Source of the DNA: an uncultured Poribacteria bacterium
GTDB taxonomy: Bacteria > Poribacteria > WGA-4E > WGA-3G
Direction: 5' to 3'
DNA: 64,000 bases
Assembly (NCBI GenBank): GCA_951813565.1
Contig: OX638351.1
Span: 192,001-256,000 of the forward strand
Shown here piece by piece: positions 12,001 through 27,000 of this stretch; the stretch's first letter is position 1; the number at the start of each line of letters is the position of its first letter. The position numbers are program-made.

Positions 12001-15000
12001 TATCAATATCGTGACCTTGATCCGTTAGTCAATCGGTGGGATCTTGGTGCGGATCCGCTTGAATTTGCTAAACAACGTCGAGAAATTGTGGCAGGACTAT
12101 GGGACGAGATTGCAGACAAAGTCACAACAGATGGAATGGGTTATCAACGAGTCCGACGTGCATTCAGATCACTGCTGGGGCAATATAGTCGTGGCATGTT
12201 CCTTGCAGCACGTTTCATCGGTGGACAATACCATCATCGGGACCATAAAGGGGATGAAAATGGGCGGTTACCTTATGTGCCTGTTCCTGCGAAAAAGCAG
12301 CGTGAAGCACTAAAATTTATCAAAGACTACGCGCTATCAGACGAAACTTTCGATTTTCCACCGAAGCTGCTGAACAGCATCGCAATTACTCGGTGGAGTG
12401 ATTGGGGAACAAGTAGTGGAAATTCTTCACGATTGGATTACCCGATTCACGACGTTATTCTGCGAAACCAAAGCCAAATTTTAGGACGGTTGCTTGATCC
12501 GAATGTTCTTGCACGTGTTCAAGATACAGAACTCAAGTTTTCTGACGATGAAGATGCGTTCACATTGCCAGAACTCTTCACGGGAATTACGGATGCTGTT
12601 TGGGTTGAACTTGATAAGAATGCTGATGCAAAACAGTGGACGAATTCAGATGCATTTATCTCCAGTTTCCGTCGCGGTTTGCAGCGTGAACATCTGAAGC
12701 AGCTTATCAAACTCGTGTTAGATGCAGACAGCGGCACCCCTGAAGATGCAAGGTCCCTTGCACGTCTCCATCTCAAACAAATCAATGAGCGTATCAAGAA
12801 TGTGCTGCAAAATTCCAAGGATAAGCTGGATGATTACAGTTTAGCACATTTTGAAGAATCGCAAGTTCGCGTTGAGAAAGCGTTGGATGCAAACTTCCAA
12901 GTTGAAAAACGTTAAATACTTGTCTTTCTCCGCGTAGGGCGGGGTCCCTGTGCCCCGCCAATGCTATCTGCACATTTGGCGTTGATATAAAATGTCAATT
13001 CCTATAGTAAGCGCGCCTATCCTTATATATAACGTGAGCTTGATAAATCCCGTAGGGAATCAACACCGAATGCGCCTACGGCATTCGGTGGGGTAGAACG
13101 GAAATGGACAATAAAAACAGACCCTAAAGAGAGGTTATTTTCTTCGTTCATTGCGTTTATAAATGCATAACCATAACAGAGCTCCTCTAATTCCTCGGGT
13201 TCATAATCAATACTTCCTGATTGATCATTGTCAGCAATAATAGAGCTTACAATAATGCAACTGACCATCACAAAAAGAAAACGGAAAAAAGTCGTTTTTT
13301 TATTCCTTCTAATGTAGGTTTAGGTACTGATATGGATCAATACCTGTAGTCTCAAAATCTAAAACTTGTATGTGGGGTGGTGGATTTAAAAGGTCAATAT
13401 CTGCAGGAGGCGGACTTCCACCTTTTATGCGTGTTATAAAAGGTTCCAGAGTCCCATCAGGTGCTTCACGCTCTTCCACGATGATATAATACGTGTTGAA
13501 GAAGTGAGGATACACTTTGTCGTTTTCAATAGAAGCTCCCTCAAAGTTCCTTATTCCTTCTGACCAGAGTTTGACCAAAACCCGCTCCATGAGTTCAAAA
13601 CGTCTTTGCTTATAGGATGGCAGACGTTCGTAGTATTCCATATCCCGCCAAGTAATACCGTAGGGATAATCAGCAGGGACTTTTGGAAACGGACCGAACC
13701 CGTGTGGTGATATAGGCACTTCCGCTGTCTCAGCGTTTTCTGATGGCTTTTCAGTTGATTGTGACTGTACCGCCACTTCGGGCCCTTCTGCCCCCCTATC
13801 AGGGGCTTCAGTTACAGGTTTCTCTGCGGTTTGCATATTGCTTTCCACAGGTGTCACATCGGCCGCCTGTTCTGCCTCGTTGTTTACCGCTTTTCGGGTT
13901 ATTTCCCGTTGACGGAGTAACTTAGCGGATTCCACTGCCTCTTGTCTATAAGGTGCTGTATCGTGTTGGTACCATAAATAACACGCACCTGCAATTATTA
14001 TCAGGAGGGCAATAGCACCAATAAACCATTTATTAGTGATGATGTCGCGAATCATCTATAACCTCCGATTGTTGTGTGACACACCACATTGACGTGTCTG
14101 TTATGAGAGTTTGCTCGATGCACCGTGGTTTTCCACTTGTCAGTGGAGGACGCGCACTATGCGCTTTGTGTATTCGGTGAGGTATCTTCAGTAATTAACA
14201 ACAATTATACAAGAACTGAAACAAAATGCTCAAGCAATTAACAATAATTTATGTGAAACGGGTGATGGGATATTATGATCGACTCTGCTATTTTTCTCAT
14301 ATTGTGCGCAAGGTGAAAGCGTTTGTCAGTTTATAGCAAAATTTAGGAAAAGAGTGAAGTAAGTGAAAAAGTAAAGGCAGATACCCAATCGGATACCTAC
14401 CTATAGATTGTGAAGATATATAACGCCGCCGGTTACCAGGGTATATGAGAGTATGCGTCCAAAGCACCATTCCAATTCATGTCATAAGCATAACCGTTTA
14501 TTGAACCTGATGTAGAACAATCTGATGCTGTATTCGAAGGATGAGGATATTGACCTTGTAACGTCTTTGATTCGGAATGATATGCTTTGGCACGATCATT
14601 GTGCCTGCCTTCAAATTCTGGATAGCCGCCACTATAATCCCAAGGACCAAAGTCACTATCTTTGGTCTCACCGTCCACATATATTAACGCATCCACCCAA
14701 TAATAACCCCTGTAGAAATTGCTGTTGCACCTAATATTTGCCTCACAACTCCATGATGCGTAGGAGTATGCAGTGACAGGTACATTTGCAGTAGTCGTTT
14801 CAGTGCTGGTGTCGGCAGAAAAGGGCCATTCATAATCACTCGCGTTTTTATACCACTTGTCAGTATATCTTATACCAACTAAAGTATTGCTATTGTAGCT
14901 GTGTCCCCATTCACTATGTCCACCATTGTTTGAACCTTCGTTATGATCTGAGAAAACGATAGAAGTACCCAGACATAACAGCGTTATTGATAAGTACGAG

Positions 15001-24000: not shown

Positions 24001-27000
24001 GCGGGCAAAATCGTTTATAAGTTTATAGCAGAGATTTAGGGAACAAAAGAGTGGTAAAGAGTGAAGGTAGGTAAAAAGAGTAAAGGCAGATACCCATAAG
24101 GATACCGGCCTGCCTGATTTATATCAGATCATGTTGTGCGCTAATGTGCACTTGCATTTGGACAATTCGGATTTGCGTCTGTACACTCATCACAGTTCGG
24201 GGTGAGATCCGAACTACTGGTGCTGCTACCACTATCATGTGTCCAGGTCCAGCTTGAATGTTCTACGGTCCAATGTCCATCACTATCCCCTGTAGTGGTA
24301 GCGGTGGCTCCGTTTTCCCATGTTCCAGATACCCCTAAGGGTAATCCAGCTCTGACCTTGTAATAATACGGAGTGTAGTGGACTACTCCGTCGCCTTCCC
24401 AGGGATATGTACCTTCTGCCTCGTTGAAAGTGCCTGTTTCTGTGGCACTAACTTCTACGTCATGGCCATAGGATCCGAACGGAACACCTGGAACATACCA
24501 TCCGATCTCTATAGCTCCAGTCAAGTTTTGTTCGTTACCAACGTCCTCACCATCTATCTTACCCCATAATTGTACTTGTGCAAAGCCAAGTCCATGTCCT
24601 TTACTTTCGAGTTTGATAACAGGATCCTTTGGATGGTTATTCCAGAGTTCCTCATCAAAAGAACCATCTGCGTTATAGTAAGAAACTTTGCGAAAGGTCC
24701 AGCCATCTATATTACAAGAAATTGTGGGACTTGTTACTTCTAAAAACTTATTAAAAGGGTTATGGTCAAGAGTGTTTATAACCGCATTGTGTGCATATAA
24801 ATTATAAACACAAACCAAAACGATGAGTGTAAGGATAATGTATCGTCGTTTTAACATCTATAATTCTCCTTTCTCTTCTAAGATTGGAATTAAATAAGAG
24901 TAACCATGCTCTATGAGCGCAGCTCTCAGCTTTTCTTTCATAATACGTAGCGGTTTGTCAGGATCTGCTTCCTTTTCCTTTTTAGGTGCTACCCACAATG
25001 TACTGCCTTTCACAGGACGTTCCCTTTGTACTTCTTCGTACAATTGTCCCCATTCTGCCCAAAGTTGTTCTGCTTTCGCAGTGTTACCCTGCGCTTTTTG
25101 CCATCCTGCTTCTATTTTCAGTGCCCTGAGCATTTCATATTCCTCTAAAGTAGGGGTAAATCCTATGCCCATCTTGATTTCAACAATTGGCTCGCCTCTT
25201 TTATGTAAAATCGGTTTGCCGTTCTCGTCTAATAGTGGCACACCTGGAGACTTCCATCGATAGGTATACCCCCGCGGTGGAACTTTGAGTCCATGCTGCG
25301 TATAAAAGCTATCAAATATCTGCTGCTGTTGTTTTTCTGACAGTTTATGGAAATCGGAAGGAGTGAGTGTGTTCTCCGGATTTTCATCAGATGTTAGTTT
25401 CCCAGCAGCTGGCGTTTTGCTTTCCACAGAGGCATCGATTCCTTGTTCTCCTTCACTCTTATTGTCCACTTTTTTAGCGGCTTCTTGTTGACGGAGTAAC
25501 TTAGCGGATTCGGCTGCCTCTTGTCTATAAGGTGCCGTATCGTGTTGGTACCATAAATAACACGCACCAGCAATTATTATCAGGAGGGCAATAGCACCAA
25601 TAAACCATTTATTAGTGATGATGTCGCGAATCATCTATAACCTCCGATTGTTGTGCAACATGCCACAACGGCATGCCTGTTATGAGAGTTTGCTCGATGC
25701 ACCGTGGTTTTTCACTCGTCAGTGGAGGACACGCACCATGCGCGTCTCTTTTTAGTGCGTTATCTCTCAGTGATTAACAATAATTATACAATAGATGCAA
25801 TCAAATGTCAAGCAATTAACACTGAATTGTATAATATTAACAATAATAATACACAAAAAATCATAAAATGTCAAGTAATTAACAATAAATTGTCGTTTTT
25901 TGACAATAATTATGCAAAATATGTTAAAACCTACACTCCGCAGTTATGGATCTGGAAAATAAACATTTTTGACTTCTATTCCTAATATGTTGATAATCTT
26001 AGACTGTATTACATTTAGGTTTACGATAGTGCGTTGTATATGATCGTTTTGTTCTATCAATAATACGTCAATATTTTCAAACATTTGAAAGATGCGTCGG
26101 AGCGTTGGGGTTTGCGTGGGTTTACCGACTTGGTTGGGTATTGTTTGTTCCTGTTTTTCTAATTCCAACCGAACCCATTGTTCCGCAAGCGCATAAACAA
26201 GTAGCGAAAGTCCCATCACCATCAGTAATGCCATGATCCGTTGGGGTTTTTCTAAATATAGACTATTGGCAAAGAATAAAGGGTCTTTCAAAAACCGAAA
26301 ACCGCGTTCCACAGAGATGTTCTGTGCTTTATAGGCTTCAAGAATAGTGGCATCGTCAAGTAAAGTTGTATCTAACTCATTGGTAGCTAACACAAATCTG
26401 CCTTTGCTGCGTTTGAGTTTTTCAATCGCTTCTATATTCGCAACAGCTTCGCCCTCAATACGATAACGAAAGTGTGTGGGGTTATCTGTTTTTTTCGGTC
26501 GTCCCGATGTTGTGTAATGTGGAACAGAGATAATGGAGACGCATGGTTTATGATACTTCCAAGACTTGGATATTTCTGACACGGCAGCTTCAGCCGCTGA
26601 GTTGGTATCAAACGATTTATTTCGCAAGCGTTTGAGAGATGTTTCAGCAACAGTCTGTGCTTTGGCAATCTTTTTTTCTAAAGTCGCCACTTCACGATGA
26701 TACGCTGCTTCGGAATAAACAATTAGCCATCTTTGCGGGATATCTCCATAGCTGCTATCCACCGAAAGATAACGATACCCCTCAAGCGGTGCTGGCTGCA
26801 TATCTTCAGTAGAGATAGTTTGATAAAGTTCTTTGACAGCTTTGAGTGTTTCAGGAACACGCGTAATGAAACGCACATCACTGAGCACAGCAATGTTACG
26901 GGCAGTATAAAGCGCACTATCCGCTACAAAATAGGGCGCATCACTGCCACGCATTTGAGCCAGATACGCTCGGATCGTGTCAGGAAAACTTGTTTTATCA

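Follow-up and report, generated by a model that had tools for sequence, protein, structure and literature searches.

Tandem two-gene cassettes in Candidatus Poribacteria appear to encode an undescribed group of private chaperones (or of self-protection proteins) dedicated to exported proteins

How do Poribacteria, the dominant uncultured symbionts of sponges, export their proteins? One report describes poribacterial sorting-domain proteins without a matching machine (PMC3909097). A 64-kb stretch of DNA from Candidatus Poribacteria (the window, to which positions refer unless a genome is named) carries a unit that is repeated seven times. Every copy has a promoter to itself and encodes a membrane anchor and linker that hardly vary between copies, followed by an anchored domain and then by a signal-peptide gene. 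What do the anchored proteins do for the secreted ones (hereafter cargos)?

The genes of the array lie on the minus strand, at the place that the first-pass annotation had given (13309..25634). That annotation counted six tandem pairs of a single family. Six intact pairs do lie in tandem, but the 139-aa domain thought to define the family is carried by only five of the seven anchors, in four intact pairs and one broken one; the remaining two, at 19402-20355 and 24858-25634, have the shared anchor followed by unrelated domains. In relatives, each of these two goes with a cargo family that is particular to it, so the window holds three matched anchor/cargo classes. A single cassette family for all six pairs was rejected because the class II and III domains are unrelated to that of class I and the cargos of classes I and II have no mutual profile match. 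No Pfam or NCBIfam family passes its cut-off for any of the 14 array proteins.

All features of the array described here lie on the minus strand. The class I anchors, identified with the family HMM, are A6 (22994..23746, the copy used for folding and fold searches), A5 (21277..22023), A3 (16625..17389), A2 (15019..15753) and A1 (13309..14055). Two of their cargos match the class I profile well: B6 (22402..22980, 192 aa, E 4e-11), which ranks above all 856 background ORFs when its cluster is left out, and B5 (20748..21263, 171 aa, E 1e-9). B2 (14433..15011, 192 aa) has no BLAST relative; it is recovered by the family profile at E 2e-5 among 39,420 ORFs and scores above all background ORFs. B3 (16133..16609, 158 aa) is the weakest member, with only 2.5 bits against the class I profile and 8 of 856 background ORFs scoring as high. 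A1 is intact and its cargo gene B1 (13023..13303) is broken: it has no ATG start and a frameshift in the signal-peptide codons, and its 3′ part is replaced by a genomic repeat. Over 61 columns B1 is 62% identical to an intact cargo in locus L007; its region has identical letters in one contig of run X1 and no gaps in X9. The class II anchor A7 (24858..25634) joins the shared TM helix and linker to a 170-aa domain unrelated to that of class I, and precedes a B7-type cargo in all eight loci with a full-length B7 match; B7 (24141..24857) consists of a signal peptide, a beta-rich domain of ∼190 aa and a short Cys-rich tail. In class III, A4 (19402..20355) carries a 208-aa domain behind the same helix and linker, and at 10 of the 24 loci from relatives a single-sequence search places a homologue of B4 as the next gene downstream. 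B4 (18755..19405, 216 aa) is followed by a second TM-anchored gene, C (17793..18647), which contains the first half of the class III domain twice. The order A-B-C recurs in loci L220 and L221, and L222 has A-C with the cargo missing. The joints between units fall within repeats and are not read as rearrangements. Cover over some units is absent in runs X8 and X9; contigs attest presence alone, so no difference in cassette content between strains is drawn from them.

From sequence, the unit has its own predicted promoter and terminator. The anchor gene precedes the cargo gene, to which it is translationally coupled, and encodes a TM helix that is not cleaved, a disordered linker and a folded C-terminal domain. 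The cargo starts with a signal peptide of the Sec type, continues into a beta domain specific to its class and may end in tail domains. Each unit opens with a conserved repeat of ∼300 bp (in the alignment, for example, 22024..22323) that contains the promoter, three short hairpins and the RBS, and that blastn finds at all seven units and at two other cassettes. The sigma-70-type promoter-like site of unit 7 (25783..25811) matches at 12/12, and equivalent sites lie at 23897-23926, 22174-22203, 17542-17570, 15902-15931 and 14204-14233; the aligned site of unit 4 has a weaker -35. A terminator-like hairpin follows B5 (20694..20720), the same hairpin follows B2 (14375-14402), and aligned look-alikes follow B3, B6 and B7. 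A known RNA family in the leader was rejected, as an Rfam search returned no family and only three sub-threshold miRNA matches.

Among class I genes with enough N-terminal sequence, 193 of 203 have a TM segment, preceded by ∼9 residues. A lipoprotein anchor was rejected because a lipobox-like motif occurs in only 7 of 211. The linker of these 193 genes is acidic, 73% of its residues are disorder promoting, and its length is tightly kept (median 83, quartiles 79-88). Such constancy would suit a complex that persists in the periplasm, where a variable subunit, held by the tethered domain, would bind ligands to be sensed or taken up, with an anti-sigma or TonB-like reach to the outer membrane, and a sigma-70 region 4 gene that overlaps the start of one anchor subfamily could be read in the same way. 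We consider this very improbable, as ∼9 cytoplasmic residues are too few for a signaling domain, and the window units have their own sigma-70-type promoters with no receptor or regulator gene.

The class I domain belongs to a large family, if a slightly smaller one than the ∼34 genes first proposed: an iterated HMM, stable over three rounds, finds 31 ORFs among the 39,420 of the genome. Within the phylum it is present in 100 of 109 genomes, which belong to three families. As an indirect view of its spread beyond Poribacteria, 74 loci were obtained from the 80 best of 318 confirmed stretches, and their titles name either Poribacteria or an "uncultured bacterium". A 5-sequence profile yielded 544 clusters at 50% identity, where 694 had been reported. 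The 135-aa domain of A6 is modeled as a mixed alpha/beta fold (pLDDT 97.1, pTM 0.87). As the first-pass annotation had claimed, it has no structural match in the PDB (over 48,161 chains the best Z is 2.7, with 50 residues aligned at rmsd 4.4), and Foldseek returned nothing at E ≤ 0.001 from PDB or BFVD, although an absent match to a model does not prove a new fold.

Anchor and cargo genes are coupled far above background. For 16 of the 31 class I genes, an ORF of at least 150 aa with a signal-peptide-like start begins no more than 45 bp downstream; six have a short or broken partner and nine have none. Signal peptides were called from hydrophobicity and charge rather than with SignalP, and under this rule the count falls short of the 19 of 31 copies annotated earlier. 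At relatives' loci, a signal-peptide partner of at least 100 aa follows 103 of 211 distinct domains (7 of these partners are further anchor genes), a stub follows 30, nothing follows 75, and 3 lie at an edge. As a control, 258 of 3,167 long ORFs of the host genome have such a partner.

Are partners matched as well as adjacent? The cargos had been called almost unalignable, a description that BLAST bears out (20 sequences give 6 pairs at E ≤ 0.05) and profiles do not. Unrelated cargos were rejected because profiles unite those of class I in one divergent family, a result supported by a leave-cluster-out test of the class I cargo profile against the 856 background ORFs. B2, B5 and B6 match only the class I profile, B7 only that of class II and B4 only that of class III, and none of 113 sequences downstream of class I anchors matches the class II or III profile. 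The idea that one conserved domain serves unrelated cargos thus gives way to three matched classes, with the class I cargos forming one family. Cargo clusters also track the anchor tree, with 15 changes for 12 groups versus a shuffled mean of 66.2 (a quick tree of 94 rows, in which kin are not independent). Hundreds of natural cognate pairs of this kind are a good set for asking how strand-addition interfaces diverge yet stay specific.

A complex model of the A7 domain with B7 scored 0.85, and the best of three controls 0.01. Two of three runs succeeded (0.11, 0.85 and 0.85), with contact agreement of at least 10% and partner pLDDT of at least 82; of 157 solved pairs 116 attain the score mark, as do 2 of 215 mismatched ones, a rough guide with its own alignments. 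In the model, cargo residues 114-119 form an antiparallel strand pairing with anchor residues 123-128. Together with the gene coupling and with anchor subfamilies that track cargo subfamilies, this independent model, of a class unrelated to the class I pair modeled earlier, supports a dedicated anchored partner whose strand pairs with that of a variable secreted beta-protein. To that extent the proposal of an anchor/chaperone and variable-subunit surface system is upheld. Its "surface system" can be no more than tentative: neither an usher nor a partner in the outer membrane is encoded in the cassettes, and toxin and immunity protein would account for several of the facts just as well. The family is large (up to 31 copies in a genome), and its small soluble domains make it amenable to tests in E. 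coli.

We favor, with a probability of about one half, the reading that the anchors are single-client periplasmic chaperones, built like lipase foldases, that would cap an edge strand of the cargo before export. Each unit would then be a two-gene operon for one secreted protein and its private membrane-tethered chaperone. Both proteins would enter the periplasm, where the anchor, as modeled, lends a strand to the exposed edge strand of the cargo's beta domain. Such capping could keep newly exported cargo from aggregating, oligomerizing or inserting into the producer's membranes until the anchor passes it on. A diderm envelope and an exit appear to exist, judging from seven Omp85 matches over the cut-off, three secretins and one T2SS/pilus F-type platform gene (T2SSF), although T2SSL was not found in the 95%-complete genome, which makes the export route tentative and counts against this reading. 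Outside the cell, the cargos may act as diversifying binding or surface proteins in the sponge matrix. Their repertoire would grow by duplication of the promoter-anchor-linker module and be pruned mostly by loss of cargo genes.

The likeness is to the lipase-specific foldase Lif/LipH and other steric foldases of T2SS clients, which also have an N-terminal TM helix, an unstructured linker and a periplasmic client-binding domain and share an operon with one Sec-exported client, for Lif the lipase (PMC13381987). The anchors described here are unrelated to them in sequence or fold: the all-helical Lif chaperone domain has no Pfam match on the anchors, whose model is mixed alpha/beta. Linkers are ∼83 residues long versus 30-55. 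The clients also differ, as searches with Pfam and NCBIfam found no cognate lipase in the operon and no enzyme family on the cargos, which are all-beta sandwiches. Contact is modeled as strand addition, and a genome can have as many as 31 paralogous pairs, with no fewer than three unrelated classes. If the anchors are chaperones, several classes, one with a domain that matches no solved fold, would join the two classes of membrane-tethered steric foldase that PMC13381987 gives as the only known ones.

Whether class I cargos need a chaperone is not evident, since the minimal one (98 aa), modeled alone, appears to fold as a complete-looking eight-stranded beta-sandwich (pLDDT 96) with no obvious gap. 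A possible, though less probable, explanation is that the cargo is a polymorphic antibacterial toxin, exported by Sec to attack the envelope of neighbors, and the anchor a tethered immunity protein that neutralizes its own and incoming copies through the edge strand. Orphan anchors would then be kept as immunity. Polymorphic toxin/immunity systems with periplasmic immunity proteins have cognate pairs, tandem arrays, orphan partner genes and rapid divergence. The cassettes share these features, and also have several unrelated partner domains on one localization module, each matched to one cargo class. Cargo loss is far commoner than anchor loss: at least 6 of 31 host anchors sit beside cargo stubs, three tandem anchors without cargo lie at G000 366686-370396, and tblastn found no further broken class I domains. 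Intact anchors that outlive their cargos fit an immunity gene better than a useless orphan chaperone. The opposite case, a split anchor with an intact cargo in locus L065, may be an assembly error. The shared module is here on the partner, however, rather than on the secreted protein, and no recognized toxin or delivery domain was found. If this explanation held, the cassettes would reveal that the sponge microbiome harbors a polymorphic toxin system that had been overlooked.

In fold comparisons, the minimal class I model covers the whole of lactococcin 972 (65/66 residues, Z 5.4, rmsd 2.5) and much of the bacteriocin Formosin D (75/85, Z 5.7, rmsd 3.5), for which a literature search found no paper. 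However, Z 5-7 is background for small sandwiches, and the rim of MspA (Z 6.5-7.0, rmsd 4.4-4.7), a porin whose stem would not fit in the 98-aa cargo, and CsgH (Z 6.9) rank higher. Like lactococcin 972 and mediterrocin, a lactococcin-972-like protein (PMC12345188), the cargos are small, Sec-exported and all-beta, and 1 of 53 has a weak, sub-threshold match to the mediterrocin model (E 0.081). Profiles of lactococcin 972 and six relatives gave no match, hhalign probability was below 10% and on the signal peptide only, and PF09683, PF10916 and NF052268 do not match the host genome's cargos. The cargos also have two more strands, and tails, and are acidic: net charge in the window is -1 to -21, versus +4 for mature lactococcin 972, and most cargo clusters are strongly acidic. 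Lactococcin 972 is partnered by a seven-TM DUF1430 protein and an ABC ATPase rather than by a single-TM tethered domain, and the DUF1430 immunity family (PF07242) was not found in the genome. Two hydrophobic, Gly/Pro-rich loops in class II cargos would suit a toxin. The swappable tail domains common on class I cargos would not: FN3 occurs in one class I and one class II cargo and a PKD-like domain in one class II cargo, and the tails shared across classes are, by their predicted domains, of adhesin type. These tails speak for the private chaperone reading, as do the acidic charge of the cargos and one class I domain that is fused behind a C-type lectin.

Strand pairing in the complex model also recalls the Elr/WxL pilus of Bacillota and chaperone-usher pili. 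In the Elr system a membrane-anchored chaperone (ElrE) pairs a strand with a secreted beta subunit (the pilin ElrD), and a constant N- or C-terminal module accompanies a variable payload (10.64898/2026.10.17.759780). By likeness to this layout the cargos could be surface subunits, which would agree with the top fold matches, among them the rim of MspA and two curli helpers, CsgH and CsgC, and with the N-terminal extension of many cargos (median 8, upper quartile 23 residues). We regard this as unlikely. There is one cargo per operon in a diderm host, with no tip, base or anchor genes. No outer-membrane usher (PF00577) was found in the genome, which is 95% complete on a single contig, and its best match to WxL (PF13731) is below cut-off at E 0.545 and not on a cargo. 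DUF916/DUF3324 chaperones have no Pfam match on anchors or 53 cargos, and the class I anchor is alpha/beta rather than Ig-like. The eight modeled strands of the minimal cargo show no obvious gap, the MspA family (PF09203) has no match, and pilins are absent from the top fold matches listed.

The ESM Atlas held no usable match for the minimal cargo or B7, and PDB sequence searches with cargo profiles gave none, or only E ≥ 0.48. The motif of the C-terminal sorting domain on T9SS-type proteins of Poribacteria occurs in 21 ORFs of the genome and in none of 86 cargos. One query for a class V cargo found none in 40 relatives. A small outer-membrane barrel was rejected, as the cargo is modeled as a sandwich and many cargos have tails beyond it. 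An antibody-like arrangement, with three variable loops at a single pole, was not supported: insertions occur equally in loops 1-2, 2-3, 4-5 and 5-6.

It is conceivable, if doubtful, that the cassettes form a modular platform. One promoter-TM-ruler-linker module would be combined with any of several catcher domains that are unrelated to one another and of which one or more have a fold with no match. By strand addition each catcher would capture its own class of beta domain and bring it, swappable tails included, to the outer membrane over a periplasmic distance set by the linker. Module duplication and patchwork recombination could then give each Poribacteria strain a repertoire of tens of secreted binders or weapons. 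Finally, a transposase gene (25944..27512, minus strand; DUF4277 and DDE by Pfam) lies directly upstream of the array, outside the cassettes.

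The seven units lie head-to-tail on the minus strand within window 13023–25811, in an operon layout that can be read directly from the DNA. Each opens with ~300 bp of conserved DNA containing a sigma-70-type promoter-like site, three short hairpins and a ribosome-binding site (RBS), and continues with an anchor gene (A1–A7) whose first 55 codons are 85–97% identical from unit to unit. The cargo gene (B1–B7) starts between 4 bp before and 15 bp past the A stop, and a terminator-like hairpin lies 3′ of it. Promoter-like sites are not above chance overall (37 found, 30 expected); they are in register across six units. 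A transposase is directly upstream of the array. When contigs from other sequencing runs were compared with the window, differences clustered at 15382–15430 (runs X4 and X9) and 16838–17235 (X4), beside 2,537 identical bases at 17694–20230, a hint of patchwork exchange between units.

The array is flanked, at window 28016–29893 and 10294–12915, by genes for a signal-peptide WD40-repeat protein and a DUF5117/DUF4953 met-zincin. Short multi-copy genomic repeats, with very high contig depth and many loose ends, occur at window ~13020–13140 and 27740–27780, and one such repeat stands in place of the 3′ end of B1. Immediately ahead of the RBS, 15–60 bp upstream of each A start in the window and in many other cassettes, is a hairpin that shows compensatory-looking changes and has no Rfam match; upstream folding energy is below −8 kcal/mol for 35% of 187 anchor genes and 18% of 317 other genes.

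The 139-aa domain closes A1, A2, A3, A5 and A6 (class I), five of the seven anchor genes, with mutual identities of 35–46%. There are 31 copies in the genome. A profile search found the domain in 18/18 congeners, and a full-length model found it in 75/81, 8/9 and 17/19 genomes of three families and in 0/11 genomes of five others, counts that may include a few weak rows matching the anchor only. It forms 544 clusters at 50% identity. The predicted fold is mixed alpha/beta (pLDDT 97.1, pTM 0.87). The lack of a structural match in the PDB, reported in the first-pass annotation, holds: the best neighbor among 48,161 chains has Z 2.7 (rmsd 4.4, 50 aligned), and Foldseek returned no match at E ≤ 0.001 in the PDB or BFVD.

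The topology signals can be read from the sequence. Across 193 class I genes, in which kin are not independent, a median of 9 residues precedes the transmembrane (TM) helix, which is joined to the domain by an acidic, low-complexity linker (median 83 residues, quartiles 79–88). In this diderm genome, the anchor would stay in the inner membrane and hold its domain in the periplasm, where the domain would cap an edge strand of the cargo and then let it go for export. Lipase foldases have the same layout, although their linkers are shorter, at 30–55 residues in the accessible part of PMC13381987, which also states that only two foldase classes are known. We give roughly even odds (about 0.5) to the reading that the anchors are lipase-foldase-like chaperones of their cargos.

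Are the cargos related? A profile made from 59 relatives' cargos only was run on the 39,420 ORFs of the genome; its first 12 matches were 11 of the genome's own cargos plus a new orphan, and 5/19 own partners were missed. Since close relatives could explain such matches, we removed each BLAST cluster in turn and scored against 856 signal-peptide ORFs, the partner of the gene at C1 2418142 having been removed beforehand as a non-cargo. Fifteen of the 19 own partners still fell within the top 1%, and the earlier description of the cargos as almost unalignable to each other is not borne out by these profiles. By this sequence measure, class I cargos form one family, of which B3 is the weakest member. 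In their core, consecutive small-residue strands surround a near-invariant G-x-[YW]. The model of a minimal 98-aa cargo (L187) has eight strands (pLDDT 96, pTM 0.84), with middling likeness to MspA (Z 7.0, rmsd 4.7, 93 aligned), CsgH (Z 6.9, rmsd 4.1, 85 aligned), CsgC (Z 5.9), Formosin D (Z 5.7, rmsd 3.5, 75 of 85 aligned) and lactococcin 972 (Z 5.4, rmsd 2.5, 65 of 66 aligned). Sequence tests against the lactococcin 972, DUF2712, mediterrocin, MspA and WxL families gave no match, save two sub-threshold single-member hits.

B4 and B7 are two of the four cargos missed in the leave-out test, and their anchors bear other domains. Thus, of the six tandem pairs of one family noted previously, the tandem units stand, but A4 (class III) and A7 (class II) fall outside the family. 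An A7-type anchor is directly upstream in 8/8 loci with a full-length B7 match. A B4 homolog is directly downstream in 10/24 relatives' loci with an A4-type domain (single-sequence search), and most remaining A4-type loci have a signal-peptide ORF or stub there. The classes are matched: B7 matches the class II profile only, B4 the class III profile only, and 0/113 sequences downstream of class I anchors match either. Class I cargo clusters also track the anchor phylogeny: on a quick tree that omits singletons and pairs, their 12 groups need 15 changes, against a mean of 66.2 after shuffling; linkage alone would give the same result. Cargo tails are swapped across classes: FN3 occurs in cargos of both class I and class II, and further tails comprise PKD-like and unnamed Ig-like domains and a Cys-rich motif. 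Three anchor/cargo classes share one tether.

Two further loci (L254 and L255; C1 3447458–3448936 and 4795317–4797439) likely form a fourth class. Each has a gene for a TM helix, linker and unknown domain, then a signal-peptide gene encoding a hydrophobic segment that looks helical and is rich in glycine, with a Cys/His-rich tail that is frameshifted; none has a Pfam match. A possible fifth (L256; C1 5281175–5282856) pairs a TM-and-linker gene with a secreted beta-rich protein containing an alternating Gly/hydrophobic hairpin-like stretch. It has no Pfam match, and one query found none in 40 relatives.

Signal-peptide partners had been counted for 19 of the 31 class I copies; the coupling stands, and by our own rule a full partner is present for 16, a short or broken partner for 6 and no partner for 9. 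Two of these nine show remnants, B1 in the window and a frameshifted cargo after C1 366686. The B1 break is real: the sequence over 13107–13931 is identical in a contig of run X1, and X9, which comes from a different study, shows no gap at this place. Relatives' loci (110 around the 150 listed of 226 profile matches, plus 74 from a second search) gave 211 distinct domains, 103 with a partner of at least 100 aa and 30 with a stub, versus 258/3,167 control ORFs. Broken domains are few: a tblastn search of the genome found no further broken copies, one copy (3168949) lacks its anchor and is cut by an IS, and 13/247 domain ORFs in relatives are partial (~six distinct loci, one with an intact cargo). 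From the many partner stubs and remnants against few broken domains, we infer that cargos decay more often than anchors.

Such a surplus of orphan anchors, together with the lactococcin-like cargo core, speaks for an alternative in which the anchor would serve as an immunity protein against its cargo by the same molecular step. We consider this the main rival, less likely than the chaperone reading; acidic cargos and adhesin-type tails speak against it, and no DUF1430 gene was found in the genome. At C1 366686–370396, three near-identical divergent class I anchors lie in tandem with IS-like fragments between them and a cargo remnant after the last only. One class I subclade (loci L077, L081, L161, L169 and L180) precedes another, longer protein family (~390–440 aa, with an N-terminal hydrophobic segment) in place of a beta-sandwich cargo.

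A complex model of the class II pair scored 0.85, and none of 3 controls exceeded 0.01. Run by run the scores were 0.11, 0.85 and 0.85, with contact agreement of at least 10% and partner pLDDT of at least 82; the complex-score mark, reached by 116/157 solved and 2/215 mismatched pairs, is only roughly applicable to our own alignments. The best-defined modeled contacts form an antiparallel ladder between cargo 114–119 and anchor 123–128. No sequence relative was found in the PDB with the class II cargo profile, and we know of no complex like this one. In the models, two unrelated anchor domains both seem to pair with their cargo by strand addition, class II here and class I in the first-pass annotation.

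For export, the genome has three secretins and a T2SSF gene; T2SSL was looked for and not found. Three tandem ~1,000-aa secretin genes (L258; C1 3370700–3380350) lie 8 kb from the T2SSF gene, and the one scanned has six Secretin_N stretches. An usher-less pilus resembling Elr, as outlined in the accessible part of 10.64898/2026.10.17.759780, seems improbable given a single cargo per operon and no usher found in the genome.

Candidatus Poribacteria are sponge symbionts, according to the accessible parts of PMC3909097 and PMC5087111. A literature search, with most subscription journals and supplements (e.g., Poribacteria pangenome tables) outside its scope, did not turn up any publication on these cassettes. 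What is new is the protein families; the logic of a tethered single-client partner is already known. This analysis adds the family unity of class I cargos, classes II and III, and the class II complex model.

Some class I domains have other settings. A 642-aa secreted protein (L045; C1 2418142–2420070) carries the domain behind CarboxypepD_reg and C-type lectin domains. At C1 3163583–3165855 (L037), a sigma-70 region 4 gene overlaps an anchor's start, and the DNA upstream of this anchor resembles that in a relative's locus (L019). Two class I anchors (C1 1643195–1647658 and 3025300–3029500) are directly before genes that look, by eye, like STT3/PglB-type glycosyltransferases; ahead of one anchor lies an orphan cargo, and ahead of the other a lipoprotein-like anchor whose cargo is frameshifted.
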